A stretch of DNA of 44,843 bases from IMG/VR virus record IMGVR_UViG_3300045988_068058, positions 1-44,843 of that record, one strand, 5' to 3'. How positions within the stretch are numbered: position 1 is the stretch's first letter; each line of letters starts with the position of its first letter. Under the pieces are notes generated by a model. The model was not told where the DNA came from, did not search any database, and saw only the letters and a program-made list of their open reading frames with translations. Shown here piece after piece: positions 12,553-38,818 of this stretch. Position numbers and translations under genes: made by a program. Source of the DNA: a virus.

Positions 12553-13947
12553 ATGGCAGATAAACCAGTAACAAGGGAAGAAAAATATCTTGCGTACTTG
12601 ACAGGTGATTACAAGGGCGAACTCCCAAAGCCAATCACAAGAAAAGAGAAGTATTTATACGAATTATGTTTGAAAGGAATGGGCGGTGAAATCTCGCCGG
12701 AGGAAATCAAAGCCGCAGTAAATGAGTACCTTGAAAAGAATCCGGTCAAGCCCGGAGCCACCACAGAACAGGCACAGCAGATCGAACAGAACAAGACGGA
12801 TATTACTTCGCTAAAGGAAGATATAAATATGTTATCTGTTAGCTCCATCTCTATTAAAGACGTGCTTACTGATAAAACAACACATGCCGGAATATATATA
12901 AGAACGGATGTACCAGTTGGTGATCCAAGATTTTATGAAGTTAATGAGAACTTTAATTCTTCCAATATCAATGAGATAGAACCGAACGAAACATATACCG
13001 TAATTTGTAAGAGGTATAACAATGGAGAAGAAATTCATTTTTGTGATGCAATGTTTTTCGATGTTGATCACAAATATATATCCAGAATTCAGAATACAAC
13101 TAAGTTTACAACACCAAATAACGCTAAATATTTTGCGATGACTCTATATTCAACAAGTTACGATCCAAATTCATGGGATAATTTTGATGATATCATTGTT
13201 GAAAATTCTAATCAAATTACTTATCCATTAATGAAAAATAGATTAAAAAATACCAGGGCATTTATAGGTTGCGAAGGCAAAAAGTGGATGGTTATAGGCG
13301 ATAGCATCACAGAACATAATTTTCGTGCGCTTGCGAACTATCATGATTATGTTGCCGAAGAACTAGGACTTGAAGTAATAAATTGTGGTGTAGGCGGTAG
13401 TGGTTATAAAGTTCATGATACAGATGATGATTATATTTCAACAATTTTACCATTTTATAAAAGAATTAGTAATTATTCGGAATACAAACCTGATTTAATC
13501 ACGATTATGGGTGGCATAAATGATTTGTTGTTTAGTGGCAAACAAATGGGCGAAATCACAGATACATCAACAGATACTTGGCTCGGTTGTGTATATCAAT
13601 TAATTCAAAATATAAAAACGACATTTCCGAACGTTCCTTTTGGTATTATGTCACCACTCCCAGCTTGCACAGTTGGAAGTGGAAATTGTTTATATAATTT
13701 TAACCCATCCGATAAGACAAACCAGGAATATATATTTGTTCAAAAACTAGAAGAGCTTTGCGATTATTACTGTATTCCATTTTTGAATCAATATAATAAA
13801 AGCGGTTTTAGACCTTGGGATGACGATTTCAAGTTAAAATACACATCATGTAGGCAAGAACAAAGCGGTGATGGATTGCATCCTAATGTCCAAGGGCATG
13901 AACTCATCTATCCTAGAATCAGGGAATTTATAAAAACGCTCATATAA
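12553..13947 (+). CDS. Fibre-like protein with C-terminal SGNH/GDSL hydrolase (esterase) domain
   Basis: All four SGNH blocks are present: GDSITE, GVGGSG, GGINDL and DGLHPNVQGH. N-terminal duplicated TR.EKYL motif and a coiled-coil segment. Confidence 0.85.
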   Translation: MADKPVTREEKYLAYLTGDYKGELPKPITRKEKYLYELCLKGMGGEISPEEIKAAVNEYLEKNPVKPGATTEQAQQIEQNKTDITSLKEDINMLSVSSISIKDVLTDKTTHAGIYIRTDVPVGDPRFYEVNENFNSSNINEIEPNETYTVICKRYNNGEEIHFCDAMFFDVDHKYISRIQNTTKFTTPNNAKYFAMTLYSTSYDPNSWDNFDDIIVENSNQITYPLMKNRLKNTRAFIGCEGKKWMVIGDSITEHNFRALANYHDYVAEELGLEVINCGVGGSGYKVHDTDDDYISTILPFYKRISNYSEYKPDLITIMGGINDLLFSGKQMGEITDTSTDTWLGCVYQLIQNIKTTFPNVPFGIMSPLPACTVGSGNCLYNFNPSDKTNQEYIFVQKLEELCDYYCIPFLNQYNKSGFRPWDDDFKLKYTSCRQEQSGDGLHPNVQGHELIYPRIREFIKTLI

Positions 13948-14558: not shown

Positions 14559-15788
14559 ATACTTAGTCCAGAATATTTACGAAGAATTACGGAGGGCAGT
14601 GAACAAATTGCCGAAGAACTGCATCAGTATATCATCTCTGAAATCGTATCACGGATGATGGCAAGAATCGGCAGAGGTGAGGACTATATTCTGACTAACG
14701 CTGATGCGTGGCGAATTAGAACGCTACAAGAATCCGGTGAACTACTAGAGGGCATTCTGGCAGAATTATCCAGATATACCAAGCGTGAACAACAGGAGCT
14801 TCTTGAAGCGTTCGAGGATGCCGGAATCACTGCAATGAACTATGATGACAAGGTATATAAGGCGGCAGGATTAAGCCCTGTACCGCTCGAACAATCCCCG
14901 GCTATGATAAGACTCATGGAACGGAATATGCTTGCAACCATGGGCGAGTGGAAGAACTTCACACGAACGACCGCAAGTGTCGCTCAGAGACTCTATATCG
15001 AGCAATGTGACCTTGCATATAATCATGTGATGACTGGGGCAGTTGGATATACGCAAGCCATCAAAGAAGCAGTTAACAACGTTGTGAGTGATGGCGTTAC
15101 CGTCACATATCCATCTGGTAGAAAAGACACAATTGAAACAGCAGTAGCACGCTCTGTCAGAACTGGCGTGGCACAGGCTACGGGAGATATATCCCTGAAA
15201 CGTATGGAAGAAATGGACTGGGATTTAGTTCTAGTCAGTGCACATATGGGAGCCAGGACAGGTGACGGCGGCGAGAATCCCGGAAATCACTCATGGTGGC
15301 AAGGCAAGATATACTCTCGTTCTGGCAAGAGTAAGAAATTTCCACCGTTCTCATTGACCGGATATGGAACAGCAAGCGGACTGTCAGGGGTCAACTGTCG
15401 GCATAGCTTTGGAGCCAGTGACGGGGAATTTAATCCCTATGCAGAACTATCAGCACAGGATAAAGCTGATAAAGGCAAACAGTACGAAAAGGAACAGAGA
15501 CAACGTACTTATGAACGGAGAATCAGAAAGACAAAGAGAGAAGTTCTCGGAATGCAAACAGCGGTTAATAACTGCAAGGACGAACAGGCGAAATTCGCAT
15601 TACAACAAGACCTTGACCGGAAGTCTTATCTTTTGCAGAAACAAAATGCTGCATACAAAGATTACTGCAAGCAGAACGACCTGAGGGAACTGCAAGACCG
15701 ACTCATGATAGCAAAGTGGAATCGCCAGAACGCCGCCAAAGCCAGAGGAGCGGCAAAGAGATATAAAACAGCAAAGGGGATTGACTGA
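14559..15788 (+). CDS. Minor capsid / head morphogenesis protein (Phage_min_cap2-like), probable non-canonical ATA start
   Basis: The frame is open from 14553. A strong RBS GAGGTGA lies at 14545-14552. The upstream segment LSPEYLRRITEGSEQIAEELHQYIISEIVSRM looks like the family N-terminus. The first ATG is at 14655. Motifs VSAHMGARTGD and GVNCRHS. Confidence 0.75.
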   Translation: MLSPEYLRRITEGSEQIAEELHQYIISEIVSRMMARIGRGEDYILTNADAWRIRTLQESGELLEGILAELSRYTKREQQELLEAFEDAGITAMNYDDKVYKAAGLSPVPLEQSPAMIRLMERNMLATMGEWKNFTRTTASVAQRLYIEQCDLAYNHVMTGAVGYTQAIKEAVNNVVSDGVTVTYPSGRKDTIETAVARSVRTGVAQATGDISLKRMEEMDWDLVLVSAHMGARTGDGGENPGNHSWWQGKIYSRSGKSKKFPPFSLTGYGTASGLSGVNCRHSFGASDGEFNPYAELSAQDKADKGKQYEKEQRQRTYERRIRKTKREVLGMQTAVNNCKDEQAKFALQQDLDRKSYLLQKQNAAYKDYCKQNDLRELQDRLMIAKWNRQNAAKARGAAKRYKTAKGID

Positions 15789-16174
15789 TGGACAGATGGG
15801 AATATTTCAATCCGAATCCTGCCGGGAATCGAGTCGGAGATTGTGCTGTCCGGGCAATATGCAAGGCAACCGGGTTCGACTGGGAAACAGTATTCGCCGG
15901 ATTAATGATACAGGCGTGTACTCTGTCAGATATGCCGAGTGCAAATTATGTCTGGGGAGCGTACCTCTATAAACGTGGGTACAGGCGCAAACTGATTGAA
16001 CAGTCAGAACGATATATCTATACGGTCAACGACTTTTGCACAGACCATCCAACAGGCACGTATATTCTCTGCATAGATGGTCATGTAGTGACAGTACAAG
16101 AGGGTAAATATTTCGATACATGGGATTCCGGCAACGAGATCCCGGTATATTACTGGGAAAAGGAGAATAAATGA
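15788..16174 (+). CDS. Hypothetical protein with a papain-like Cys/His/Asp pattern
   Basis: TGATG overlap with the previous gene. Conserved-looking motifs NPNP..VGDCAVRAI, IDGHVVTV and FDTWDSG. The function call is low confidence. Confidence 0.55.
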   Translation: MDRWEYFNPNPAGNRVGDCAVRAICKATGFDWETVFAGLMIQACTLSDMPSANYVWGAYLYKRGYRRKLIEQSERYIYTVNDFCTDHPTGTYILCIDGHVVTVQEGKYFDTWDSGNEIPVYYWEKENK

Positions 16175-16476
16175 GCATATCAGAATTTGTACAGATTTTC
16201 TTGTCTATCTGTGGAGGGGTGTCCATTGTCGGAGGGGCAGCGGCTGTAATCTTTAAGTGGATTACACCGGCGTTTCGACTTAATAAGCGAGTAGAGACAC
16301 TGGAAGAACATGATAGACGAGATTATGAAAGCCTTCGGAGAATCGCAGAACGAGATTCATTGATTCTGGAAGTGTTGTCGACCATGTTAGACAGCCAGAT
16401 TAGCGGAAACAATGTGGAAGAATTAAAAAAAACAAAACAGAAGCTCACGGAGTATCTCGCGCAGAATCAGCGGTAG
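16171..16476 (+). CDS. Single-pass membrane protein with coiled-coil tail
   Basis: ATGA overlap with the previous gene. TM segment FVQIFLSICGGVSIVGGAAAVIF. Confidence 0.6.
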   Translation: MSISEFVQIFLSICGGVSIVGGAAAVIFKWITPAFRLNKRVETLEEHDRRDYESLRRIAERDSLILEVLSTMLDSQISGNNVEELKKTKQKLTEYLAQNQR

Positions 16477-16496
16477 TATTGATAAGGGGTATGCTC

Positions 16497-16697
16497 ATGA
16501 AATTATATGTGTTCACAAAGAAAGATATAGACAGATTCTTGATAGAGTGTAATTTTACACCGGACGAGGAAAGGTTATTCCGATTGAGGTGTAAGGAATA
16601 CACTCTTGAATACTGCGCTGAACAGATGAATGTGAGTATATCCACGGCGAAACGATTAAGCCGGAGGGTGAATAATAAAATAATTAAAGTGTGTTAA
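16497..16697 (+). CDS. Sigma-70 region-4-like HTH regulator (66 aa)
   Basis: TPDEERLFRLRCKEYTLEYCAEQMNVSISTAKRLSRRVNNKI fits the region-4 HTH pattern. RBS AAGGGG lies 8 nt upstream of ATG 16497. Confidence 0.6.
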   Translation: MKLYVFTKKDIDRFLIECNFTPDEERLFRLRCKEYTLEYCAEQMNVSISTAKRLSRRVNNKIIKVC

Positions 16698-16708
16698 GAT
16701 GACAATAA

Positions 16709-16746
16709 AAGCCCCCGGGATTATCTCTCAGGGGCTTATTTTTATT
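16709..16746. terminator. Bidirectional intrinsic terminator between convergent genes
   Basis: AAGCCCC / GGGGCTT stem with an A-run on the 5' side and a T-run on the 3' side. Confidence 0.7.
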
Positions 16747-16966
16747 CTGATTTTATCGTTATAATTGCGGCATTTGCGAACAATTCAAGTTCTACATTTC
16801 GTGTTTCAATTTCTTCATCGTAATAATCTAGCATGTCATTGTAAAGACCGTCAAGATCATCTGATGCGCCAGCCATAAAATGGTTGGAACCATCTTCATA
16901 AATTTCAAATATGTCAATACGAGTTTGATTTTTTTTCGCTTTTTCAAACGCCTGTTTAAACTTCAC
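16742..16966 (-). CDS. Small, highly acidic protein (74 aa), third gene of the RHH cassette
   Basis: GTG start 6 nt after AGGAGG. Asp/Glu-rich (DDLDGLYNDMLDYYDEEIE). Confidence 0.6.
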   Translation of the reverse strand: MKFKQAFEKAKKNQTRIDIFEIYEDGSNHFMAGASDDLDGLYNDMLDYYDEEIETRNVELELFANAAIITIKSE

Positions 16967-16980
16967 TTTCTTCCTCCTAC

Positions 16981-17184
16981 TTATGCCCGAGCGTACGAAA
17001 TAAAATTCTGCTCGGCGGTTTCGTCAACGAGTTCCGCCGGGATTCTCACCCAGTTCTCACCCAGAGAATTTATAAAATCCTCTTTCTGGGACTCTGTGCC
17101 GCACAGCCAAGCTGCTGTAACTTTGGCACATCCGAAGTTTTCGGAATTGTTCCGCGCCACCTGTTTTAATTCAAATTTCTTCAT
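16981..17184 (-). CDS. Hypothetical 67-aa protein, second gene of the RHH cassette
   Basis: RBS GGAGGA upstream of the ATG. Confidence 0.6.
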   Translation of the reverse strand: MKKFELKQVARNNSENFGCAKVTAAWLCGTESQKEDFINSLGENWVRIPAELVDETAEQNFISYARA

Positions 17185-17252
17185 CTTTTGTCCTCCGTTC
17201 CGCCCCTGTCCGGGGCTGTGTGATTGATTTCTTTAACTGTCCTTATTATACA

Positions 17253-17290
17253 TATATGTGCGTTATATGTCAAGCGTATATGTGCGTTAT
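17253..17290. promoter_or_regulatory. Two direct copies of TATATGTGCGTTAT (putative RHH operator)
   Basis: Copies at 17253-17266 and 17277-17290, between the RHH gene and the next gene. A third copy lies at 17505-17516. Confidence 0.5.
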
Positions 17291-17292
17291 TT

Positions 17293-17472
17293 TTATTTTT
17301 TTTCTAGCCTGTCGAGTTCTGACAGAACAATGTCTCGAATAAAGGCACTGTTACTCTTGCCAAGGCCGAGCTTTTCAATTCTCTCTTTAGTTCCTTTTGG
17401 AAAGACAATATTCAGTCTATAGTTGTTGTTCTCATACTTCCTTACTGCTCTTTTCTGCGCTTCTGTTGCCAT
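17293..17472 (-). CDS. Ribbon-helix-helix (Arc/CopG-type) DNA-binding protein
   Basis: MATEAQKRAVRKYENNNYRLNIVFPKGTKERIEKL..SNSAFIRDIVLSEL fits a beta-alpha-alpha RHH pattern. RBS AAGGAGGG upstream. Confidence 0.7.
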   Translation of the reverse strand: MATEAQKRAVRKYENNNYRLNIVFPKGTKERIEKLGLGKSNSAFIRDIVLSELDRLEKK

Positions 17473-17504
17473 GTTAATCCCTCCTTTTTTCTTAATTATA
17501 AATC

Positions 17505-17516
17505 TATGTGCGTTAT
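17505..17516. promoter_or_regulatory. Third TATGTGCGTTAT operator copy, in the divergent promoter region
   Basis: Exact 12-mer shared with 17255-17266 and 17279-17290. Confidence 0.5.
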
Positions 17517-17600
17517 TGCACAATACTTTTTCGATACTTTTTTGAACTTTTTAGATTGATACATCTATGTAAAAATATAATCAGAAAGGCGGTGCATAAG

Positions 17601-18071
17601 ATGGCATTATATAACAATCCTTATCAATATAGCTTTGGCGTTCCGGGACAGATGAATCAGTTTCAGCAACAGCCTGTCCAGATGCCAGCTCAACCAGTGC
17701 AGCAACCACAGCAGAATAATAATGGTATCTTGTGGGTATCTGGCGAAGTCGGCGCAAAATCCTATCTGGTAGCACCCGGGACAAGCGTTTTACTAATGGA
17801 TTCAGAGGCAGAAAGATTCTTTATAAAATCCACAGACGTTTCCGGTATGCCACAGCCATTACGGACGTTTGAATACCACGAGGTAGGCGCTCAGATGCCG
17901 CCTAAACAGCCTGTTCAGAACATGGACAGTAAATATGTCACCAGACAGGAATATGACGATTTAAAAGGCAAATACGAAGCTATCATAAATCGATTAAATT
18001 CTTTTTCTGAACCTGTTAGGGCTAATACCGTACAGGAATCAGGAGCCAAAGGAGGAAATGCAGATGAGTAA
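17601..18071 (+). CDS. Gln/Pro-rich N-terminus plus beta-rich domain protein (GerQ-like architecture)
   Basis: RBS AGAAAGG upstream. QMNQFQQQPVQMPAQPVQQPQQNNN tail followed by GILWVSGEVGAKSYLVAPGTSVLLMD... Confidence 0.65.
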   Translation: MALYNNPYQYSFGVPGQMNQFQQQPVQMPAQPVQQPQQNNNGILWVSGEVGAKSYLVAPGTSVLLMDSEAERFFIKSTDVSGMPQPLRTFEYHEVGAQMPPKQPVQNMDSKYVTRQEYDDLKGKYEAIINRLNSFSEPVRANTVQESGAKGGNADE

Positions 18072-18285
18072 TCCATTATTCAATGCCCTCGGTGGTGGGA
18101 TGCCACAGGGAAACGGACCAATGCAGATGATACAGCAGTTTATGCAGTTTAAACAGAATTTTAAGGGAGATCCAAAAGCAGAAGTACAGAAAATGCTTCA
18201 GTCAGGAAAAATCTCTCAGCAACAGCTTAATCAAGTTCAGCAGATGGCGGGACAGTTCCAGCACATGCTGAAAGGAATGAAATAG
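18058..18285 (+). CDS. Gln/Met-rich 75-aa protein
   Basis: Overlaps the previous stop. Low-complexity, Gln-rich sequence. Confidence 0.55.
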   Translation: MQMSNPLFNALGGGMPQGNGPMQMIQQFMQFKQNFKGDPKAEVQKMLQSGKISQQQLNQVQQMAGQFQHMLKGMK

Positions 18286-18339
18286 TACATTACAATCTGG
18301 CCAGATTGATGTAAATACACAATAAAGGAGATTATAACT

Positions 18340-19119
18340 ATGGATGGAAATTATAGCTTAGCAGATATTGCCGCAGCTACTGGAAACGGTAGAAATAATG
18401 ACGGCATGTTTGGTGGAGATGGTGTATGGTGGCTTATCGTGCTTTTCTTATTCGTATTCTGCGGATGGGGAAACAATGGCTGGGGCAATAACGGCAACGG
18501 CGGTGGATATACAGCCACAGCAGCTACTCAGGCAGACATTCAGAGAGGATTCGATAACTCCGCAGTAATTAGCAAGCTTGACGGAATCAACAACGGTCTC
18601 TGTGATGGATTCTACGCAGTGAACAATGGTATGCTTACCGGATTTAACGGAATCAACACAAACATCATGCAGACTGGTTTCGGTATCCAGCAGGCAATCA
18701 ATGCTGACACTGTGGCTAATATGCAGAATACAAACGCATTGCAGGCACAGCTTGCGAACTGCTGTTGCGAAACCAGGGAAGCTATCCAGGGCATAAACTA
18801 CAATATGGCACAGAACACCTGTGCATTGCAGAACACCATGAACAGCAACACAAGAGACATTATTGACAGTCAGAATGCAGGAACAAGAGCCATTCTCGAT
18901 TATCTTTGCAATGAAAAGATTTCTAACCTGCAGGCTGAAAACAATGATCTCAGACGTGCTGCTTCTCAGGACCGCCAGAGTGCACTTCTCACAACTGCAA
19001 TGGCTTCTCAGACACAGCAGCTTATTAATGCAATCAATCCGGCACCGATTCCGGCATATCAGGTACCTAACCCAAACACATATTACGGATGCGGATGTAA
19101 CACCGGATGCAATTGTTAA
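18340..19119 (+). CDS. Membrane-anchored Gly/Asn/Trp-repeat, Asn/Gln-rich, Cys-rich protein
   Basis: RBS AAAGGAG upstream. TM segment VWWLIVLFLFVFCGW, repeat GWGNNGWGNNGNGGG, a CCC triplet, and C-terminal YYGCGCNTGCNC. Confidence 0.65.
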   Translation: MDGNYSLADIAAATGNGRNNDGMFGGDGVWWLIVLFLFVFCGWGNNGWGNNGNGGGYTATAATQADIQRGFDNSAVISKLDGINNGLCDGFYAVNNGMLTGFNGINTNIMQTGFGIQQAINADTVANMQNTNALQAQLANCCCETREAIQGINYNMAQNTCALQNTMNSNTRDIIDSQNAGTRAILDYLCNEKISNLQAENNDLRRAASQDRQSALLTTAMASQTQQLINAINPAPIPAYQVPNPNTYYGCGCNTGCNC

Positions 19120-19230
19120 TAACTTCATATCGAGAGTATCTTTCGATTGAATCGAATGTCGGCTTATGCCGTATTACACAGAGGGGCAGGCTGAGACCTG
19201 TCCTTTTGTGATATGAAAGGAGTATTTTTT

Positions 19231-19653
19231 ATGGCAGAATTTACAAGTATAGCTGCACAGACTGTAGCAGCAAAAGGAAACGTAGTATTTTCAAACACAG
19301 CAGTTAAAGGTTCTAACTGTATTCAGCACAGAGAGGGAAGCGGAATCATCACGCTGAGAGGGCTGACTAACCAGTGCAAAGCGAGATTCTTCGTGGATTT
19401 TTCTGGTAATATCGCAATTCCCACCGGCGGTACTGTCGGAGCTATTTCTCTGGCTATTGCAATTTCTGGTGAGCCGGTTCTTTCTTCACAGATGATTTCC
19501 ACACCGGCGGCAGTAGATCAGTATAACAATGTGTCCTCTGGTATCTATATTGATGTACCTCGCGGATGCTGCGTTAATATTGCAGTGGAGAACACAAGCG
19601 ATCAGGCGATTTCTGTTGCGAACGCAAACATTGTTGTAACCAGAGAAGCGTAG
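19231..19653 (+). CDS. All-beta 140-aa protein resembling BclA C-terminal / BxpB (C1q/TNF-like) exosporium proteins
   Basis: RBS AAGGAG 8 nt upstream. The strand pattern (...ARFFVDFSGNIAIPTGG..ISLAIAISGEPV...IYIDVP..CCVNIAVEN...ANIVVT) resembles that family from memory. Confidence 0.6.
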   Translation: MAEFTSIAAQTVAAKGNVVFSNTAVKGSNCIQHREGSGIITLRGLTNQCKARFFVDFSGNIAIPTGGTVGAISLAIAISGEPVLSSQMISTPAAVDQYNNVSSGIYIDVPRGCCVNIAVENTSDQAISVANANIVVTREA

Positions 19654-19664
19654 GAGGTGCGATT

Positions 19665-20219
19665 ATGAGAGACATTAAAGACTTATGTGCAAGAATTGAA
19701 GATGAGCTGTCCAAAATCGCTGACAATGGACTGACCACCGGAAATCTGGAAATGACATACAAACTGATTGATATGTATAAAGATATCAAGAATACGCAGT
19801 ACTGGGATAAGAAAGTTGAGTATTACAATACTGTCCTTGATGAGATGCGTGGTGGATATAATGACGATTACAGCGAACGTGGAAGAAAGCGTGATAGCAT
19901 GGGGAAATACAGCTCAAATGACGGCAGAATGATGCCAGATTACGACCGGGGCAGTTCTTATGCCAGACGTGGCGAGCATTATGTCAGAGGACATTACAGC
20001 CGTTCTGATGGGCAAGACGCCTACGATGACTACATGACACAGAAACAGAGCTATCGTTCCGACAAATCTGAGGACTGCAAAAGAAAGATGCTTGCCGCTC
20101 TGGAAGAACATCTGGACGAACTCACGACAGAAATGAGCGATATGTCCAAGGATGCAGAGTGCCGGGAAGAACGTGATCTTGTCAAGAGATACGTGGAAAA
20201 GCTCCGTGATATGCTCTAA
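19665..20219 (+). CDS. Protein with helical ends and an Arg/Asp/Tyr/Ser/Gly-rich disordered core
   Basis: RBS GGAGGTG upstream; 184 aa. Confidence 0.65.
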   Translation: MRDIKDLCARIEDELSKIADNGLTTGNLEMTYKLIDMYKDIKNTQYWDKKVEYYNTVLDEMRGGYNDDYSERGRKRDSMGKYSSNDGRMMPDYDRGSSYARRGEHYVRGHYSRSDGQDAYDDYMTQKQSYRSDKSEDCKRKMLAALEEHLDELTTEMSDMSKDAECREERDLVKRYVEKLRDML

Positions 20220-20229
20220 AAACGTAAAA

Positions 20230-20265
20230 GTGGTAGAGAGGTAGTTAAAAGAAATCTGTTATAAT
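20230..20265 (+). promoter_or_regulatory. Candidate late promoter: box GTGGTAGAGAG - N16 - TGtTATAAT
   Basis: Second copy of the 9258-9293 architecture, with a consensus extended -10. Confidence 0.45.
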
Positions 20266-20338
20266 GTAATTGCGCAACAGGAAGCACAACGGTTGTTTTG
20301 ACGTTTTCGTTTTACCCTCCTTTCTTAAAGTAGCTGGT

Positions 20339-20387
20339 ACACACGCTTTAGTGGAAACTCAAGCAGGTTCGAACCCTGCCGTGTGTA
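20339..20387 (+). ncRNA. 48-nt tRNA-like minihelix (acceptor stem + canonical T-arm, no anticodon arm)
   Basis: ACACACG pairs with CGTGTGT. T-arm is GCAGG-TTCGAAC-CCTGC. Only 17 nt (CTTTAGTGGAAACTCAA) lie between the acceptor 5' strand and the T-stem. Confidence 0.45.
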
Positions 20388-20538
20388 TTTGCCGTCTGGC
20401 ACGCAAGATGGCGCACCTCCTTGATTAAGGTTTTTGTATTCATAAAGTTTTTCCTTTGAAAAAGAAATAAATATCCGAAACAACTCGTGGCAGGCATGAC
20501 ACGTAAAATACCTTGCTAACCCGGGAATCCGGGTTAAT

Positions 20539-20611
20539 GGAAATATAGCTCTAGTGGTAGAGCAGTATTCGCATAGAATATTGGTCAGAGGTTCGATTCC
20601 TCTTATTTCCT
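20539..20611 (+). tRNA. tRNA-like gene, anticodon CAT (Met/Ile2-type), non-canonical (G33, T14); no encoded CCA
   Basis: Hand-folded cloverleaf: GGAAATA-TA-GCTC-TAGTGGTA-GAGC-A-GTATT-CGCATAG-AATAT-TGGTC-AGAGG-TTCGATT-CCTCT-TATTTCC-T. Confidence 0.6.
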
Positions 20612-20687
20612 TACCCTGCCAGTGGTCTAACTGGCTTAATCCATTTACCTGCGGCGGCAGGTCAATAAACACGACCAGGAGGATATT

Positions 20688-21400: not shown

Positions 21401-22567
21401 ATGGCAGCAAAAGCTAATCTTATTATGACAAATGACATCCGGGTAACAGCACGTGAGATTGACTTTGTGACCAGATTTGAAAGAAACTGGGAACACTTGC
21501 GCGAGATTCTTGGTATCATGCGTCCAATCAAAAAGACGCCCGGAGCGGTTCTTAAATCAAAATATGCAGAGGGTACATTGCAGAATGGAAATGTTAAAGA
21601 GGGTGAAGAAATCCCTTACAGCAAATTCACTGTAAAAGAAAAGCCTTATGCAGAAATGAATATTGAGAAGTACGCAAAGGCGGTATCTATCGAAGCAATC
21701 AAGGACCACGGTTATGAGAACGCTGTTCAGATGACTGATGATGAATTCCTTTTCCAGCTTCAGACCAATGTTACTGAAAGATTTTATGATTATCTGAAAA
21801 CAGGTACCCTCACATTTACAGAGACTACTTTCCAGATGGCTCTGGCAATGGCTAAAGGCCGTGTTGAGAACAAATTCAAACAGATGCACAGGAATGTGAC
21901 TGGCGTTGTTGGATTTGTGAATATTCTGGATGTGCATGAGTATATCGGAGCAGCTGAGATTTCTATTCAGAATCAGTTCGGATTCCAGTACATGAAAGAT
22001 TTCATGGGCTTCAATACCATCTTCCTGTTATCTGACAGTGAAATCCCGAGAGGACAGATTATTGCGACACCCGTTGAGAACATTGTTCTTTACTATGTTG
22101 ACCCGAACGAATCTGACTTTGCGAGAGCAGGACTTGTATACACCGTATCCGGCGAGACAAATCTGATTGGATTCCACACTCAGGGTAACTACCACACAGC
22201 AGTATCCGAAGCATTTGCGATCATGGGACTTACCCTCTTTGCAGAGTATATTGACGCTATTGCTGTTGGAACTATCAACACAACTCAGACACTTGGAACT
22301 CTGACTGTAAACTCTGCGGCAGGAAGTAAAAGTGGAGACACTAAAGTGACTATTACTCCGGCAAAAGCAAGCGCGGGAAATGTGTACAAGTACAAAGTTG
22401 CATCTTCTGAGACTGCCGTAGACTACGGACAGAATGTGAAGAACTGGAGCGCATGGGATGGCGAATCTGACATTACAGCAACAACAGGGCAGGTAATCAC
22501 AGTGGTTGAATGTGACAGCACCTATAAGGCGCTGAGTGCAGGGCACGCGACTGTAACAGCAAAATGA
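21401..22567 (+). CDS. Major capsid protein with C-terminal Ig-like domain
   Basis: 388 aa after the scaffold gene. N-terminal REIDFVTRFERNW pattern. The last ~90 aa (TLTVNSAAGSKSGDTKVTITPAKA...HATVTAK) look Big_2-like. Confidence 0.85.
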   Translation: MAAKANLIMTNDIRVTAREIDFVTRFERNWEHLREILGIMRPIKKTPGAVLKSKYAEGTLQNGNVKEGEEIPYSKFTVKEKPYAEMNIEKYAKAVSIEAIKDHGYENAVQMTDDEFLFQLQTNVTERFYDYLKTGTLTFTETTFQMALAMAKGRVENKFKQMHRNVTGVVGFVNILDVHEYIGAAEISIQNQFGFQYMKDFMGFNTIFLLSDSEIPRGQIIATPVENIVLYYVDPNESDFARAGLVYTVSGETNLIGFHTQGNYHTAVSEAFAIMGLTLFAEYIDAIAVGTINTTQTLGTLTVNSAAGSKSGDTKVTITPAKASAGNVYKYKVASSETAVDYGQNVKNWSAWDGESDITATTGQVITVVECDSTYKALSAGHATVTAK

Positions 22568-23515: not shown

Positions 23516-23785
23516 ATGGACATTTCAACACTTGGCTCATGTATCGCAATCGTTATGATTTGCTACATCGTAGGAATGGGCTGCAAAGCATCAAAAAGAA
23601 TCTCTGATGAATGGATTCCAGTAATCATGGCGGTTATTGGCGGAATTCTCGGAGCGGTCGGAATGGGAGTTATCCCGGACTTCCCGGCAACGGATTACAT
23701 TACGGCGGTTGCGGTCGGTATGTTCAACGGATTATCGGCTACCGGAGTGAATCAGATTATTAAGCAGACTATGCAGAAAGAATAA
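23516..23785 (+). CDS. Holin-like membrane protein (2-3 TM)
   Basis: TM segments plus the WIPVI...GVIPDFPATDYITAVAVG...GLSATGVNQIIKQ pattern, recalled from Clostridial phage holin families. Confidence 0.6.
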   Translation: MDISTLGSCIAIVMICYIVGMGCKASKRISDEWIPVIMAVIGGILGAVGMGVIPDFPATDYITAVAVGMFNGLSATGVNQIIKQTMQKE

Positions 23786-30106: not shown

Positions 30107-30126
30107 AGATAGATGGGAGGATGATT

Positions 30127-33100
30127 ATGGCAGACACAGTATCTTTTGATAGTTTATTGAATACGACAGCTGGGATGACGGCTGTTGTTAACAACAAGAA
30201 ACACGATGATGATGTAGTCAGTGTCACAGGTGTTGATTGGTTTACCTATGCAGGCAAGACTGCCAGTACCATATATGTTTCAGGAAACAATTTTATCGGT
30301 TTCGGGCAGAACGCTGAACAGCTCAAAATCTGGCACAGGGATGGTGCAATTTATTATGTTTACCGACAGGAAGGAACACTTACGTCAGGAAAAAGATTCC
30401 TTAAAATCAGGGTTGAGGGATATGTATATTATTCAAGCACATCTTCGTCGTATGCACTGAAATATGAGATATTCTTGATAGAGGAACAGACTCTTTTTGT
30501 CAATGTTATTCAGAAACCGGCGAACAGTTCATACACTGGCACATCGTCAATTACCGACGGAAAGACCACAACGAGTCTGAATATTTCTGTAGTTTCTGCG
30601 GTACCGATTTCTATTCTGGTTAAGAACGCAGGCGTGTCCCAGACGGTTAGCTACGAAAAGTTTGTTGACAAAGTTCTTACCGGAATTACTGTAACAAAAA
30701 TACCTAACAAGACGACATTTTATCAAGGAGAATTATTTGACAGTACGGGCCTTGAAGTGTCAAAAACATATAATGACGAAACATCAGAAATCATCACTGA
30801 TTACGAATTATCCGGATTTGACAGTAGTTCCGCAGGTACAAAGACCATAACCGTTACTTCATCTGGCAAGACCACAACGTTTGAGATTACCATTTCAGAA
30901 GCCTCTATTACCGCCATATCCGTTACTACTATGCCGAGTAAGGTAAATTACCACATAGGAAAAGAATTTGATTCTACGGGCATTGTGATTACTGCAACTG
31001 CAAGTGACGGAAACACTATAGATGTCACGAAAGATAGCGCGTATTCTGGTTTCGACAGTAGTTCTCCAAAGCAATGTGAAATGACCGCCACTTATGGGGA
31101 TTTCACTTGTACATTTACAGTTACTATTATGCAGCCAGAAAAGATAAATGGAATAAGCTATTCTGGAACTGAATATTTCGCAGGAGACATTACAGATGTG
31201 CACGTGAGCAAAATAAACGTTGTATATTCAGATGGTTCAGAACAAGTAACCAGTGGCTTTGTTATCGAAAACAAGACGCTTACAGAAGCCGGCACAATTA
31301 CTATTAACGTCAATTATTTTGGTATAACAGATGATACGATAAAAGTCAATGTATATGATTCTTTTTTAGTACATATCGGCTCTCCGAATTACGAAGATGT
31401 AACAGCGCAATTTGACCTTAGTACAAATATTCTGACTGTATCTGGAAAAGGAGAATTTGTAGGTCTAGAGGATAATTTAGAACAACTTGCGGTTCCACAC
31501 AGCTTATACACAAGATGCATAAAGATGGTTTTTGAGAATGGAGTCACAAAAATACCAACTGAATTTAGCAGTATTTTCAATAATATAGTTTCTATTGTCT
31601 TTGCTGACACAATCACATATATTGACAGCATTAATTTTCCGGTTTTTTTAGGAAAAAAACTGGAAATTCCTGCGTCAGTGGAGACTATTAAGGACGAAGT
31701 TTTTGGTTCTTGCCCTAATTTAACAGAGCTAGTTCTCCATGAAGGATTAAAAGTAATTAAAGAACAATCATTTAAGGGATGCCATTCATTAAAGAGCATT
31801 ATATTTCCAGAATCAATAACATGGTTAAACTACGCCTTTCTTGATGCAACTTTTGATAACATTGAAATCGGAAGTAAAGGTTTAGAGTTTGATATGGAAA
31901 TGATAGTTCCAGATTGTAAGAATTTAACAATTCGTGGTGGAAGCATGAACGAAATATTTTATGACTCGCCTAGTTTAGAAAACCTTGTTTTAAAAAAGAA
32001 TGTTATTTTTCTTAAAGATTCCATATTTTCCAGATGCACAAAATTAAAGTCTGTAATTATTGAAAATGGTATTACAAAGATTACAAGTAAATGTTTTCAA
32101 AACACGCAGCTCACTAACGTGTCCATTCCTACAAGTGTAACAGCCATTGGTGAAGACGCTTTTCAAACATCAGTTGCAACAAATATTGTCTTGAACAAAA
32201 AAACTAATGAAATACCTGGCTCCCCGTGGGGAGCAACAGGCACGATTACATGGTTAATCCAAGTAGCCAGACTTGAAGTTACTCATATGCCGACTAAAAC
32301 CAGATACTTCGTAGGCGAAACATTTGACAGCACAGGACTTGAAATTGCCGCATACTACAATGATAATACGTCTGAACAAGTAACAGGATATACCTTATCA
32401 AGCCCGGATATGTCCGCATATGGAAATAAAACTGTAACGGTTACATTTGATGAAAAGACCGTAGATTTCAGTATTCTTGTAGTCGATATTTCTGGAATCG
32501 AAGTAAAAACTATGCCTGCAAAAATCGAATATCCAAAAGGAGACGTATTCGACACAACCGGATTATCCATCCTTGTTAAATACACTGACGGAACATTAGA
32601 AACAATAACAACCGGATTTGAAGTATCTGGATTTGATAGTTCTTCTGTTGGCGAAAAGACAATCACAGTAACCTATAAAACCCATACCGCCACTTTCAAA
32701 GTAACCGTATACGACCTTTCAGGAATCCGAATTACAAGTTTTCCGTCAAAAGTTTACTACAAAATCGGAGAATCATTTGACCCGTCTGGTCTGACAGTTG
32801 CAGAGGTAAGGCAGGATGGAACCGAGAAAGAAATCACAGATTACGATATTTCTGGCTTCGATAGTTCCACCGCAGGTTCTAAGACAATCACGGTTTCTTA
32901 TAATACAACAACCAACGGTGTTTCCAAATTTGTCGGCTCTGATAGTTTCCAAATTAAAGTCACAAACGATGGAAAGAACCCGTTTGACGATAGCTCAAGC
33001 GGTGGTTCTGGTGGCGGTTCTGGTGAAGCTGAAGAAGAAAAAACTGAACCGATCAATGTTACAGTGCACTGGATTAACGGAGAATTTGCCGATCTTACAA

Positions 33101-34527
33101 ACGAAAATATCGACCAGAATACACTTACTTTGCAGGAGTCTATTTGTTCTGAAAGCTATTTCATTTTCGGCGGCTGTGTCTGCAATCAGATAACGTTTCA
33201 GGCTCACCACGATCAGTTTAATGGCACTTCGGAAGAGTTTTATCCGTCCGGAAAAATCGAAGTTTACATCGAGAGAAAAGGAACAAAAATCAAAATCTTC
33301 ACAGGCGAAATCGACAGCGCAGAGCGAAAAGCAAACTCCCTGACACGTAATTTTATTGCATATGATTATCTGTATAAATTACGAAATACTGACATTGCAA
33401 GGTGGTATAAAAACCAGACGACTGATAAGAAGAAAAAGCTGACCCAAAAGCAATTCAGAGATAAATTATTTGAATTTTTGGGACTCGAACAGGTTGACAC
33501 AAAGTTACATTGGGACGACACCTATGTGCCTGATACGAATAATTCAAATGAGATGAACGTAGTGAATATTCTGAAAGATTTATGCTTGCAGAATGACCGT
33601 TTTGGTTGGATGAACAGGGACGGCAAGTTTGAGTATCTGAAACTCCGGCAGAACAGTTATAGATACGGGCAGACCACCAGTAATCAGAACATTTATAAAT
33701 ACTACAATAACGAAGAAGTACATCTCGATACATTCAAGAGTTTTACCGCAACAGAGGGAAGAATCTGGTTCCCAAATATTATATTTTGTGACCCTGACCC
33801 GAATAGAGCCTTTGGTTTTACACAAGGCGACTATACAGCACAAGAAGCGTATGATAACAACGTTTATTACAATAGAAATAGTTTCTTTGTAGGAAATGAA
33901 GACTGGCTAAATTACGTTTGGGATGCAGACGAATATGGCGGTATTTCAAGGGCTAAACCAATTATGAAGATTTGCTATGGCGTATTCGTAAATCAAGATT
34001 TGCGGAAATATTACCGTGCACAGGGATATACTGCCGAGGTTCAGGGAAACCCACTGAACATGGTTGGACAGGCAGTCGAACTCTACTATAAAAAGCAGAT
34101 TCAGCACGACGAGCAGGAACCTACAGAACTGCAATGGTACGTTCATTCATACATCATGAGCAGAACGCTCAAAATCGGCGCCACAGACATGATAGACACC
34201 TATTCTGCCAACAACGCACCGTTTAATAGTAACAGTCAGCAGTTAGGAAAATATACTCCCGAAATATCTGGAACGGTCAACCTTACCCGTTCAGAAATGC
34301 CGACAATCAGTTATGCGGAATTTACGGACGGTTCGGATTCTGAATTTTCGCCGGCAACGATTGATGATTTTACGGACGGTTCCGGTGGTTCTGGTAGCAC
34401 TTCTGAGCAATTGAAAAAGGCACAATTAAGGTGCGTAAAGCGAATAAAAAAAGCTGATTATGACGCTCTTGTAGCCGCAGGAACTGACCGGGCAGATACA
34501 TTGTATTTCACATTCGAGGAGAGCTGA
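30127..34527 (+). CDS. Giant tail tip / receptor-binding protein: 3 Ig-like repeats, BspA-type LRR, 3 Ig-like repeats, Gly/Ser linker, Tal-like C-terminal domain
   Basis: Six repeats of the P.K..Y..GE.FD..GL.V...Y.D......T.Y..SGFDSS..G.KTITV pattern. LRR_5-like motifs (IPASVETIKDEVFGSCPNLTEL, IFSRCTKLKSVIIENGITKI). Linker SSSGGSGGGSGEAEEEK. ATG 30127 lies 6 nt after GGGAGG. Confidence 0.85.
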   Translation: MADTVSFDSLLNTTAGMTAVVNNKKHDDDVVSVTGVDWFTYAGKTASTIYVSGNNFIGFGQNAEQLKIWHRDGAIYYVYRQEGTLTSGKRFLKIRVEGYVYYSSTSSSYALKYEIFLIEEQTLFVNVIQKPANSSYTGTSSITDGKTTTSLNISVVSAVPISILVKNAGVSQTVSYEKFVDKVLTGITVTKIPNKTTFYQGELFDSTGLEVSKTYNDETSEIITDYELSGFDSSSAGTKTITVTSSGKTTTFEITISEASITAISVTTMPSKVNYHIGKEFDSTGIVITATASDGNTIDVTKDSAYSGFDSSSPKQCEMTATYGDFTCTFTVTIMQPEKINGISYSGTEYFAGDITDVHVSKINVVYSDGSEQVTSGFVIENKTLTEAGTITINVNYFGITDDTIKVNVYDSFLVHIGSPNYEDVTAQFDLSTNILTVSGKGEFVGLEDNLEQLAVPHSLYTRCIKMVFENGVTKIPTEFSSIFNNIVSIVFADTITYIDSINFPVFLGKKLEIPASVETIKDEVFGSCPNLTELVLHEGLKVIKEQSFKGCHSLKSIIFPESITWLNYAFLDATFDNIEIGSKGLEFDMEMIVPDCKNLTIRGGSMNEIFYDSPSLENLVLKKNVIFLKDSIFSRCTKLKSVIIENGITKITSKCFQNTQLTNVSIPTSVTAIGEDAFQTSVATNIVLNKKTNEIPGSPWGATGTITWLIQVARLEVTHMPTKTRYFVGETFDSTGLEIAAYYNDNTSEQVTGYTLSSPDMSAYGNKTVTVTFDEKTVDFSILVVDISGIEVKTMPAKIEYPKGDVFDTTGLSILVKYTDGTLETITTGFEVSGFDSSSVGEKTITVTYKTHTATFKVTVYDLSGIRITSFPSKVYYKIGESFDPSGLTVAEVRQDGTEKEITDYDISGFDSSTAGSKTITVSYNTTTNGVSKFVGSDSFQIKVTNDGKNPFDDSSSGGSGGGSGEAEEEKTEPINVTVHWINGEFADLTNENIDQNTLTLQESICSESYFIFGGCVCNQITFQAHHDQFNGTSEEFYPSGKIEVYIERKGTKIKIFTGEIDSAERKANSLTRNFIAYDYLYKLRNTDIARWYKNQTTDKKKKLTQKQFRDKLFEFLGLEQVDTKLHWDDTYVPDTNNSNEMNVVNILKDLCLQNDRFGWMNRDGKFEYLKLRQNSYRYGQTTSNQNIYKYYNNEEVHLDTFKSFTATEGRIWFPNIIFCDPDPNRAFGFTQGDYTAQEAYDNNVYYNRNSFFVGNEDWLNYVWDADEYGGISRAKPIMKICYGVFVNQDLRKYYRAQGYTAEVQGNPLNMVGQAVELYYKKQIQHDEQEPTELQWYVHSYIMSRTLKIGATDMIDTYSANNAPFNSNSQQLGKYTPEISGTVNLTRSEMPTISYAEFTDGSDSEFSPATIDDFTDGSGGSGSTSEQLKKAQLRCVKRIKKADYDALVAAGTDRADTLYFTFEES

Positions 34528-35134: not shown

Positions 35135-35397
35135 TTAATTTGATGAATAAGAGCACCAAAATCGCAAATAAGAGCGCATTTTCCATAAAAATCCAAATAA
35201 GCCCTTATTCGCCAAAATAATCTTAAAATCTCAGTCCTGACTGCACTAAAATGTAACTATATTAAAAATAAAAAATGAATAATTTGTAAATGTAAATTTT
35301 GCTTGTTTTCAGAATAATTCAATCATCTGAGAAAATAATAAAATCCAGAAATAAATATTCTGTCAACGAGCGATTTTCGTTTACATAATATCTCGAT

Positions 35398-35503
35398 GTA
35401 ACGTTACAATAACGTTACCAGTAACGCAATGTAACGCAATAGAATAAGAATAAGAAATAGAATAAGAATATAATTAATATATATACGAGATATATATTAA
35501 TCG
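35398..35503. repeat. Repeat cluster: GTAACG/CGTTAC x5, (AGAATA/AGAAAT)n, and an 11-bp-arm AT inverted repeat
   Basis: GTAACGTTAC at 35398, ACGTTAC at 35412, GTAACGCAAT twice at 35421-35440, AGAATAAGAATAAGAAATAGAATAAGAATA at 35441-35470, and TTAATATATAT-ACGAG-ATATATATTAA at ~35473-35499. Confidence 0.7.
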
Positions 35504-35701
35504 TCAAATTAGGCTAATTTGACCCTGACATTCTTAATTCGTTTCAGCCTAAAGAAACCATTTTCATTAACAACCTTGTACTTGACTCATATAACGATTT
35601 TGTGTGCGATTCGATAAAATCCTCGGATAATATATAAAAATTGATTCTAGGGGCAAATACAGAGCTTACAAGGCATATTTAACAGAAAGGAGCAACGTGA
35701 T

Positions 35702-37498: not shown

Positions 37499-37518
37499 AT
37501 TAGTCACAGTTAGTCACA
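37499..37518. repeat. Tandem ATTAGTCACA / GTTAGTCACA (putative arm-type sites overlapping the int stop codon)
   Basis: Copies at 37499-37508 and 37509-37518, in the same orientation as the 37253 pair. Confidence 0.5.
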
Positions 37519-38678: not shown

Positions 38679-38818
38679 TTTTATTCCTCTTTTCTTTATG
38701 TAACTGCTTTTAGGTATAAAAATAACAGCCGAACAAATTTTCTGTCTTGTTCGACTGCTCCGAAGATGATACAATATGTTTTGCCAGAATATAGCATCTC
38801 TTCGGAGATGTATAAACG

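Follow-up and report, generated by a model that had tools for sequence, protein, structure and literature searches.

The DNA analysed here, hereafter the window, is the 44,843-nucleotide stretch of the virus record IMGVR_UViG_3300045988_068058, and our subject is a group of five open reading frames (ORFs), called i to v, at positions 17601-20219. We find that these ORFs belong to a larger cassette of six to seven genes that keeps its order across host phyla, changes its position from phage to phage, and combines a core protein (iii) with a predicted papain-fold enzyme (pep) and a protein (iv) that probably has the fold of the exosporium proteins ExsF, BxpB and BclA. Our working hypothesis, which we hold tentatively and at somewhat less than even confidence, is that this is a mobile accessory cassette whose products form a protease-processed, Cys-rich complex, with iii as its anchor in the host cytoplasmic membrane. 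The cassette genes and their companions in the window are as follows (aa, amino acids):

15788..16174, + strand: pep, a predicted papain-fold Cys-His-Asp enzyme of 128 aa, which adjoins the cassette in 50 of 88 fetched loci
16171..16476, + strand: a 101-aa protein, sometimes found with the cassette, that has an N-terminal transmembrane segment and a coiled coil
16479..16697, + strand: hth, a 72-aa sigma-70 region-4-like DNA-binding protein
17601..18071, + strand: i, with an N-terminal Pro/Tyr/Gln-rich segment, a beta domain and a C-terminal coiled coil (phrog_21718, E = 8e-39)
18058..18285, + strand: ii, a Gln/Met-rich peptide of 75 aa whose start overlaps the end of i (phrog_22984, E = 3e-27)
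18340..19119, + strand: iii, the core protein (phrog_16490, E = 2e-56)
19231..19653, + strand: iv, an all-beta protein of 140 aa with a conserved vicinal Cys pair, GCC.N...EN (phrog_20016, E = 2e-61)
19665..20219, + strand: v, with helical ends and a disordered core (phrog_28802, E = 6e-63)

An initial annotation of the window had described i to v as co-oriented, tightly packed ORFs of a composition unusual for phage structural genes. All five are present at these coordinates on the + strand, with gaps of -14 to +111 nucleotides; the stretch QMNQFQQQPVQMPAQPVQQPQQNNN quoted at the time is there, and the composition does differ from that of the neighbouring scaffold and major capsid protein (MCP), with a Cys content of 3-4% in iii and iv and of 0% in scaffold and MCP. 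Because each of the five matches one PHROG family (E = 3e-27 to 6e-63), and iii and iv have abundant database relatives, we conclude that they are real genes rather than chance ORFs; all five families are annotated as of unknown function. In a search of a 5.8-billion-protein database, iii and iv each had at least 8000 relatives, and the matches lie on contigs of 43-47 kb, about the size of the window.

The genes also travel together. When i, iii, iv and v were searched by tblastn against 50,697 phage records, the same gene order came up in Butyrivibrio phage Ceridwen, in Dulem viruses 33 and 35 and in several contigs from the human gut. A four-sequence alignment of iii, run against GTDB with each species represented by one genome, returned 80 loci, and we compared the ORFs of the fetched loci (n = 88) by phmmer. 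The order pep - i - ii - iii - beta protein - v - (vi) recurs in about 80 of them, documenting that the co-occurrence singled out in the initial annotation is strongly conserved. The five genes are indeed conserved together, but the unit is larger than the proposed five-gene module, starting at 15788 with pep and often including hth. In the 50 of 88 loci in which it adjoins the cassette, pep stands directly before i or directly after v: it abuts i in Ceridwen, Dulem 33 and many loci from metagenome-assembled genomes (MAGs), and in some loci it follows v instead. In the window, pep is parted from i by the gene for the transmembrane/coiled-coil protein, the small helix-turn-helix (HTH) gene hth and a reverse-strand insertion carrying a ribbon-helix-helix (RHH) gene. 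Because pep adjoins i directly in other loci, the reverse-strand genes are a separate insertion outside the cassette.

Divergent versions of the cassette have a comparable make-up. In the Clostridium perfringens phage HMD-PC1, the set comprises a Gln-rich beta-domain/coiled-coil protein, a Met/Gln-rich peptide of 77 aa, iii and a beta protein of the cp_b type described below. An analogous set in the crAss-like cr116_1 and in the cultured Bacteroides uniformis phage C3_41T2LP consists of iii, a beta protein with vicinal Cys, a beta-domain and coiled-coil protein, an Arg/Asp/Tyr-rich peptide of ~75 aa and a small HExxH metallopeptidase, which is unrelated to pep and holds the peptidase role in the Bacteroides/crAss version. 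Because an unrelated peptidase stands where the cassettes of Firmicute phages have pep, we consider proteolysis to be part of the mechanism. The cassette as a whole is without a described counterpart, and the predicted folds of pep and iv are variants of known folds. Sequence searches of i-v against Pfam, NCBIfam, PADLOC and the PDB gave no matches, and the family profiles of iv, cp_b, i, iii and pep returned nothing significant from the PDB. The searchable literature holds no description of the cassette and no functional information on BclA-like phage proteins, on genes shared with archaeal viruses or on Ceridwen. A plasmid search returned two matches only, one of them on an 861-kb replicon, and hence no evidence for carriage outside phages.

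The core protein iii has the features that the initial annotation had read from it, namely the hydrophobic segment GDGVWWLIVLFLFVFCGWGNNGWGNNGNGGG, a CCC triplet, the end YYGCGCNTGCNC and 11 Cys in total; 15% of its residues are Asn. From the N-terminus, its layout is a short leader whose last residues are aromatic-Gly-Gly, a single hydrophobic segment with Gly and Trp on its flanks, a long Pro-free, Asn/Gln-rich helical (coiled-coil-like) region, the CCC triplet, the motif P.P.PAY and a terminal Gly-Cys cluster. The aromatic-Gly-Gly motif is present in 59 of 63 members, and GG motifs are conserved in both iii and ii. The CCC triplet is found in 84 of 85 iii ORFs and is invariant in nine of nine divergent sequences that include bacterial-phage and archaeal-virus members. 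An exhaustive search gave 2081 clusters of relatives at the 50% level, 1064 of them at E <= 1e-10, and nearly all relatives have a length of 230-300 aa and lack domain fusions. Against the PDB, the iii profile showed only non-significant likeness (E = 0.1-1) to HR1 of coronavirus S2, HA2 and a trimeric autotransporter stalk. These likenesses suggest that iii is a long coiled coil, and they explain why it carries the labels 'spike protein/glycoprotein' and 'viral fiber' in crAss records in GenBank. A proposed kinship with YjcZ-type sporulation proteins did not hold: there is no TIGR01732 match, iii at 230-300 aa compares with less than 60 aa for YjcZ, and the likeness is limited to the composition of the hydrophobic segment.

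For pep, we predict a new minimal family of papain-fold Cys-His-Asp enzymes. Asn8, Asp18, Cys19, Arg22, His99 and Asp110 are invariant among 43 diverse sequences, and C19, H99 and D110 also across 89. An AlphaFold2 (AF2) model from the 89-sequence alignment has a predicted local distance difference test score (pLDDT) of 94.2 and a predicted template modelling score of 0.89. In this model, C19 opens helix 19-28, H99 opens strand 99-104 and D110 closes strand 107-110, with the two strands adjacent, so that an invariant triad has its Cys at a helix N-terminus and its His and Asp on a sheet, as in the papain-like fold (clan CA). The best PDB fold match is Josephin-2, a weak one (Foldseek E = 0.13, probability 0.72, template modelling (TM) score 0.51). 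In BFVD, 23 matches at E <= 1e-3 are nearly all uncharacterised phage proteins; beyond that threshold follow proteins named 'Peptidase C39 domain-containing' and, further down, 'Josephin domain-containing'. The predicted enzyme shares with C39 and Josephin (MJD) peptidases the triad of a Cys on a helix and a His and Asp on strands; unlike them, it is small (128 aa) and has no sequence match, so the likeness would be at the level of the fold (E = 0.13). The pep profile and its members have no sequence match to any peptidase family in Pfam, NCBIfam or the PDB, and no match to the transglutaminase fold was found in the PDB or BFVD.

The pep family also occurs apart from the cassette. Cassette-free homologs in Bacillus phage Izhevsk and Geobacillus phage GBK2 lie in early or host-takeover regions; the Izhevsk homolog (L089:4480-4875) has a Ser/Thr kinase gene and an Ocr-like anti-restriction gene as neighbours, and the family stands alone in the Prevotella Lak megaphages too. 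These occurrences hint at a wider, uncharacterised family of phage early-gene cysteine enzymes.

Protein iv is probably a TNF-like jelly roll of the ExsF/BxpB/BclA-C type. The iv of the window has no Pfam match at E <= 1 and does not reach the BclA_C gathering score of 38 bits, and a diverse iv profile found no match in the PDB. The syntenic ortholog in Dulem virus 35 (phmmer E = 4e-31 to the iv of the window) matches Pfam BclA_C (PF18573) over profile positions 13-127 of 128 at E = 4.4e-7 and 30.3 bits, below the cut-off of 38; altogether, four of 30 members of the iv family give BclA_C matches, among them the L061 member at E = 5.8e-5. An AF2 model of iv is weak (pLDDT 52), coming from a shallow alignment in which the best 120 clusters are 81-97% identical, and we used it only as a weak check of topology. 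Its top Foldseek match in the PDB is ExsF (9h3d; E = 1.7e-4, TM score 0.50-0.56), next to BclA (1wck, 2z5w), BxpB (8d02) and ExsFA (7r1m), with E values up to 1e-3 and root-mean-square deviations of 8-10 A; TNF ligands, Sf6/HS1 needle knobs and phage spike knobs follow. Because two independent weak lines agree, the ortholog's BclA_C match and the top Foldseek hits, we accept as probable the earlier proposal that iv is a TNF-like protein of the BclA-C/BxpB type. An alternative upstream start for iv is the ATG at 19213. Elsewhere, the slot may be filled differently: 35 loci have an iv-type protein and 31 an unrelated Cys-rich beta protein, cp_b, and hhalign detected no homology between the two types. 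The iv-type cassettes include contigs assigned to Collinsella, Selenomonadaceae and Erysipelotrichaceae. We found no collagen-like partner for iv, and an NCBIfam search found no exosporium leader of the TIGR03720 type.

The remaining members, i, ii and v, are of low complexity; each contains small conserved domains and lacks detectable relatives outside the cassette families. The Gln/Pro-rich part of i exists, together with a beta domain, but it is N-terminal rather than the tail it had been taken for; the beta domain follows the pattern V.G...AK.....G....L.D......Y.K..D..G.P in a 47-sequence alignment, and a GTG at 17508 is an alternative upstream start. Neither i nor its 47 homologs have Pfam or PDB relatives, and the suggested resemblance to GerQ finds no TIGR02728 or Pfam match in any of them. 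As originally described, ii is a Gln/Met-rich peptide of 75 aa (23% Gln, 13% Met); 22 of 34 members have the N-terminal motif NPLFxxLGG. The description of v, with helical N- and C-terminal segments around an Arg/Asp/Tyr/Ser/Gly-rich core, was likewise accurate: v has 10% Arg, 14% Asp and 9% Tyr, and its core carries the motifs RRDSMGRYSR and GHYSR in a 32-sequence alignment. Further divergent members of the v family were found, raising the v count. By sequence reading, none of pep, i, ii, iv and v has a signal peptide.

Two companion genes lie between pep and i in the window. The 101-aa transmembrane/coiled-coil protein has homologs in the same slot of two other loci (L042 and L045) and no Pfam family. 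hth gives weak Sigma70_r4 matches (E = 0.008) and, because homologs lie 5' of the cassette in 22 other loci (23 with the window), is likely a cassette-associated regulator. In several loci, the regulator is fused to an N-terminal AgrB-like domain with multiple transmembrane segments (Pfam; 26 bits against a cut-off of 23 in L069): L069:6517-7089, L071:6442-7014, L050:6446-7021, L036:6384-7001, L026:3026-4255, L060:29-1228 and L064:5907-7109. These fusions are membrane-tethered versions of the regulator, which might be freed by proteolysis. The AgrB matches thus correspond to the membrane portions of HTH regulators encoded 5' of the cassette; we considered whether ORFs of ~210 aa after iv in L009-L019 were AgrB matches replacing v and pep, and rejected this since they are divergent v-family members.

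The position of the cassette varies. The minor capsid gene precedes it and the scaffold gene comes after it in the window, in Dulem 35 and in about 12 genome loci. Dulem 33 has it behind a PGRP endolysin, ending just 5' of the integrase, and Ceridwen likewise has it behind the endolysin; both phages have the same MCP type, and in both the cassette and the head genes are ~15 kb apart. In HMD-PC1, an anti-repressor gene and Gam/recombinase genes flank it, and in C3_41T2LP it comes after recombination genes, in both cases in the early region, while in cr116_1 it stands between lysis genes and a scaffold-like gene plus MCP. The largest flanking ORFs of the genome loci (n = 86) include 12 tyrosine integrases, five serine recombinases and several proteins with endolysin domains. 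Dorea phage DO134P1 has homologous scaffold and MCP (E = 3e-125) and a packaging/head region without the cassette, and is absent among the matches of iii, iv, i and v. Based on the variable position and on DO134P1, we conclude that the cassette is mobile and dispensable for this head type, and not an obligatory part of head morphogenesis. The statement that the genes interrupt the head operon is true of the window, but it does not describe a fixed position. The cassette resembles phage morons in its variable position, its integrase and endolysin neighbours, its own regulator and its absence from related phages; unlike morons, it has six to seven genes in conserved order across phyla, occurs also in virulent crAss-like phages and in head operons, and contains no known effector domain that we could find.

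Endonuclease genes lie within or next to the cassette in Dulem 33 (L005:8862-9413), Ceridwen (L002:7157-7951) and C3_41T2LP (L006:4270-4890); one is annotated as I-HmuI and another is putatively HNH/AP2-like by sequence reading. Their presence in three unrelated phages suggests that homing-type exchange during co-infection has the cassette genes as its targets or its vehicles.

The host range is broad. The closest genome relatives are from Lachnospiraceae (Lachnospira intestinalis, 78%; an uncultured Lachnospiraceae bacterium, 84%; and a Eubacterium ramulus protein), and most fetched loci come from Clostridia. The hosts of the 80 loci also comprise Oscillospiraceae, Christensenellales, Erysipelotrichaceae and other Bacilli, Anaeroplasmatales and other Mollicutes, Collinsella, Selenomonadaceae, Phascolarctobacterium, Prevotella (in a 557-kb scaffold), Segatella copri, Muribaculaceae and Ca. 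Limenecus. MAG binning can misassign phage contigs, but it has no bearing on the crAss-like phages, the large scaffolds or the cultured Bacteroides phage. In addition, two viruses assigned to Methanomassiliicoccales carry iii, annotated as phrog_16490, without clear partners. The hosts thereby span monoderms, diderms, wall-less bacteria and, for iii only, archaea.

Our working hypothesis of a membrane-anchored complex would operate as follows. Because they lack secretion signals, pep, i, ii, iv and v would be made and assembled in the cytoplasm. iii would insert its Gly/Trp-flanked hydrophobic segment into the cytoplasmic membrane and project the long Asn/Gln-rich, probably trimeric, coiled coil with the CCC triplet, the Pro-rich motif and the Gly-Cys tail. 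A Cys-bearing beta-sandwich partner would join it; in the window this would be iv, probably as a trimer with the TNF fold, binding iii perhaps at the Pro-rich/Gly-Cys tail, and the low-complexity proteins i, ii and v would be further partners. A dedicated peptidase, pep in Firmicute phages and the HExxH metallopeptidase in Bacteroides and crAss-like phages, would process one or more components, with the aromatic-Gly-Gly just before the hydrophobic segment of iii as a candidate cleavage site. The complex would then act at the host membrane while the phage infects or persists as a prophage, for example by excluding superinfecting phages or by controlling membrane integrity or egress. We favour action at the membrane because the cassette is mobile, often occupies a moron slot and has its own regulator, and because it stands among early genes in two cultured phages and the relatives of pep are found in early regions. 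We take the cytoplasmic membrane as the target because it is the only envelope layer common to all hosts.

The nearest analogue of such an assembly would be the system that anchors BclA through ExsF in the exosporium, here placed far outside sporulation. In the exosporium, a proteolytically trimmed, Pro-rich leader peptide docks onto an ExsF trimer, and docking occurs within a Cys-cross-linked lattice assembled in the cytoplasm (PMC12357932). The ExsF/BxpB-BclA proteins of the Bacillus cereus group (9H3D, 8D02, 7R1M, 1WCK) are the best fold matches of iv, a standalone protein of ~140 aa. As in that system, the cassette has a Pro-rich motif (in iii), a peptidase, Cys-rich partners and soluble members without signal peptides. 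Unlike it, the cassette lacks a collagen-like partner, an exosporium leader motif and an ExsY/CotY homolog; it is also phage-borne and mobile, its hosts are for the most part non-sporulating and include Bacteroidota, and iii occurs in archaeal viruses.

Several observations weigh against this working hypothesis. The hydrophobic segment of iii has only ~14-17 residues and no flanking positive charges, so that the membrane insertion and topology of iii are putative. The GG motifs stand within Gly-rich stretches and need not mark points of cleavage. The C-terminal tail of iii does not co-vary with the type of beta partner, giving no evolutionary support for docking. Homologs of pep also exist where there is no cassette: in Lak megaphages, Geobacillus phage GBK2 and Tsamsa-like Bacillus phages. 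A Cys-rich, Tyr/Gln-rich make-up combined with a TNF-like trimer is typical of extracellular assemblies and fibre knobs, and the head-gene neighbourhood in the lineage of the window and in cr116_1 also fits a role in the virion. Finally, the searches gave no match to a known family of defence, lysis or superinfection exclusion; against the PADLOC-DB defence models, i-v have no match at E <= 1.

The main rival explanation is that the cassette encodes an optional virion appendage, in which iii would be a trimeric fibre or needle, iv its cap or anchor, and i, ii and v assembly or chaperone factors. Its Cys clusters would cross-link after release, and the appendage would be either a fibre or decoration of the head or a protein that is ejected and penetrates membranes. 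We regard this explanation as possible but rather doubtful. It would account for the place of the cassette, which is flanked by the minor capsid and scaffold genes in the window, ~12 genome loci and Dulem 35 and lies just 5' of the scaffold-like gene and MCP in cr116_1, and for the extreme conservation of iv (81-97% identity among the best 120 clusters). The absence of secretion signals is expected for proteins assembled in the cytoplasm, and the composition of the cassette proteins is like that of structural proteins. The fold matches of iv include phage spike knobs and the needle knobs of Sf6 and HS1, and iii is weakly like trimeric coiled coils and bears the names 'viral fiber' and 'spike' in crAss records. 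A coiled-coil-like iii with a TNF-like iv recalls the tail needle of P22, Sf6 and HS1, a trimeric coiled coil with a TNF-like knob; unlike in the needle, stalk and knob would be separate genes, iii has a hydrophobic segment and Cys clusters, the tail is of the siphovirus type and there is no sequence similarity. Against a virion role stand the many prophages with the cassette after the lysis genes beside the integrase, the two cultured phages with the cassette among early genes, and DO134P1, which has a related head and no cassette. Moreover, no cassette protein resembles any solved virion chain, those of the crAss type match none of the crAss001 chains, pep-type enzymes elsewhere lie in early regions, and none of the five PHROG families is classed as 'head and packaging' or 'tail'.

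We also considered that the cassette might encode a new kind of phage membrane machine, with a core shared by viruses of bacteria and archaea, in which iii would be a protease-primed, membrane-inserting trimeric coiled coil like a class I fusion subunit, with an ExsF-like cap and low-complexity, cross-linkable partners. The layout of iii can be read in this way, as a leader, Gly-Gly, a Gly-rich hydrophobic segment, an HR1-like coiled coil, a Cys loop, a second helix and a Cys-rich tail, yet we judge the proposal unlikely. If true, it would mean an exosporium-style self-assembling layer or fibre outside sporulation, serving membrane remodelling, exclusion or the environmental persistence of gut phages.

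An auxiliary device for lysis or egress, with iii as a peptidase-primed protein like a class III holin or a spanin, regulated by the other proteins, seems to us unlikely. Cys residues in the C-terminal domain of T4 holin T and of the lambda i-spanin Rz are functionally important, and iii resembles both proteins in having a short N-terminal segment, a single (in iii putative) transmembrane segment and a large C-terminal domain with Cys. The cassette lies directly 3' of lysis genes in Dulem 33, Ceridwen and cr116_1, endolysin domains are found among its upstream neighbours, and small transmembrane proteins adjoin it in the window and Dulem 35. Unlike holin T and Rz, iii has no family match and always occurs with several partner genes, and a spanin role is inapplicable in that the cassette hosts are mostly monoderm. 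Neither iii nor the neighbouring transmembrane proteins match a holin, XhlA or spanin family, and canonical holin candidates lie elsewhere, at 23516-23785 in the window and upstream of the endolysin in Dulem 33; the candidate at 23516-23785, with its two transmembrane segments, and the lack of a holin or XhlA match specifically weaken the idea that iii is the holin of the phage. The slot after the lysis genes is a generic moron slot too, and placement in the early region, as in HMD-PC1, would be risky for a lysis effector.

We consider it very improbable that the cassette encodes a bacteriocin-like factor that kills competitors when a fraction of lysogens lyse, with iii as a membrane-active toxin whose double-glycine leader is removed by pep and iv as a receptor-binding knob. 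This would fit the aromatic-Gly-Gly conserved before a Gly/Trp-rich hydrophobic segment, the C39-like or Josephin-like predicted fold of pep, both of which families cleave after GG, and the lysogenic-conversion slot beside the integrase. However, the leader of iii misfits the double-glycine consensus at -4, -7 and -12, there is no transporter and no identifiable immunity gene, iii at 230-300 aa is large for such peptides, and the cassette is also carried by virulent crAss-like phages.

The explanation that survives least well is that of the initial annotation, a mimic or modifier of the spore coat or exosporium with i GerQ-like, iii YjcZ-like and iv BclA/BxpB-like, which we hold to be barely credible: the likeness of iv to BclA_C/ExsF, a composition of iii, v and cp_b (Cys-rich, Arg/Tyr/Ser-rich) that recalls coat and exosporium proteins, the lack of signal peptides in coat proteins likewise and the nearest genome relatives in Lachnospiraceae, some of them sporulating, are outweighed by the absence of GerQ, YjcZ, CotZ, DUF3992 and DUF4183 matches among the cassette proteins in Pfam and NCBIfam, by the absence of any link to sporulation sigma factors or collagen-like partner of iv that we could find, and by the spread of the cassette or its core. 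Carriers in Prevotella, Segatella, Bacteroides, Muribaculaceae, Collinsella, Anaeroplasmatales, Negativicutes and crAss-like phages, and iii in archaeal viruses, go well beyond a clostridial sporulating host and the spore-forming Bacillota of the BclA_C/ExsF family; because so many of these lineages are unable to sporulate, a function specific to sporulation is excluded, although, taken strictly, the predominance of Clostridia among the fetched loci falls short of the refutation that the initial annotation had named for itself, occurrence mainly in phages of non-sporulating hosts. Its fallback, a novel capsid or membrane decoration, may hold.

The cassette matters beyond the window. With copies that number in the thousands in human gut metagenomes, iii is one of the larger families of phage proteins that are wholly uncharacterised, and it crosses host phyla and domains of life with an invariant triple cysteine. 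Its partners are a predicted new minimal papain-fold enzyme family and a probable ExsF/BclA-C-like protein, whose fold has so far been seen mostly on the surfaces of spores. A function for the cassette would annotate genes of a sizeable fraction of gut Caudoviricetes, including crAss-like phages, and could reveal a new way in which phages affect the cell membrane or shield themselves there. This is directly testable in three cultured carriers: Bacteroides phage C3_41T2LP, C. perfringens phage HMD-PC1 and Butyrivibrio phage Ceridwen.

With TerL, portal, endolysin, an integrase at 37500-38774 and a siphovirus-type tail module whose tape-measure position holds an ORF of 918 aa, the window appears to be the nearly complete genome of a temperate siphovirus. 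The flanks of the cassette agree with the initial annotation, with minor capsid protein 2 upstream and tRNA-Met, scaffold and MCP downstream:

14655-15788, upstream of the cassette: minor capsid protein 2 (PF06152)
16742..17523, - strand: three-gene insertion (RHH protein, 67-aa and 74-aa proteins) that separates pep and hth from i-v
20220..20687, + strand: non-coding downstream boundary, with TGTTATAAT, a T-arm remnant and tRNA-Met, then the scaffold gene
20539-20611, between v and scaffold: tRNA-Met
downstream of 20687: scaffold (PF06810)

Within the non-coding stretch 3' of v, TGTTATAAT at ~20258-20266 is extended -10-like, and a tRNA-like T-arm, GCAGGTTCGAACCCTGC at 20363-20379, is called by neither ARAGORN nor Rfam; the stretch may hold the remains of a second tRNA as well as a promoter from which transcription restarts for scaffold and MCP. 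In the reverse-strand insertion, ATGTGCGTTAT has three exact copies around the RHH gene (17293-17523), at 17256-17266, 17280-17290 and 17506-17516, and a perfect minus-strand promoter, TTGACA-17-TATAAT at 17273-17245, overlaps two of them. This arrangement looks like an autoregulated RHH operator/promoter controlling the small reverse-strand genes 16981-17184 and 16742-16966, the latter encoding a very acidic protein, and it may also control a divergent promoter of i.

Other genes of the window deserve mention. Between portal and minor capsid protein, 12553-13947 encodes a 464-aa protein with a C-terminal GDSL lipase/acylhydrolase domain, an unusual placement for such an enzyme. The MCP (21401-22567) carries a C-terminal S-layer SbsC_C (Ig-like) domain at residues 307-387 (E = 9e-15), and therefore the head already has a built-in, surface-exposed decoration domain. 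A 1468-aa tail protein (30121-34527) with BspA-type leucine-rich repeats and five Big_3 Ig-like domains is probably a host- or mucus-binding adhesin. The 567 bp directly 5' of the endolysin gene (35702-37174), at 35135-35701, hold no plus-strand ORF of at least 40 aa; the only good holin candidate in the window (23516-23785, 89 aa, two transmembrane segments) lies amid head-tail connector genes, and Dulem virus 35 has an annotated holin at the same position. In the early region, a 372-aa protein with a PAPS-reductase domain (2972-4090) could be the product of a DNA-modification or auxiliary metabolic gene.

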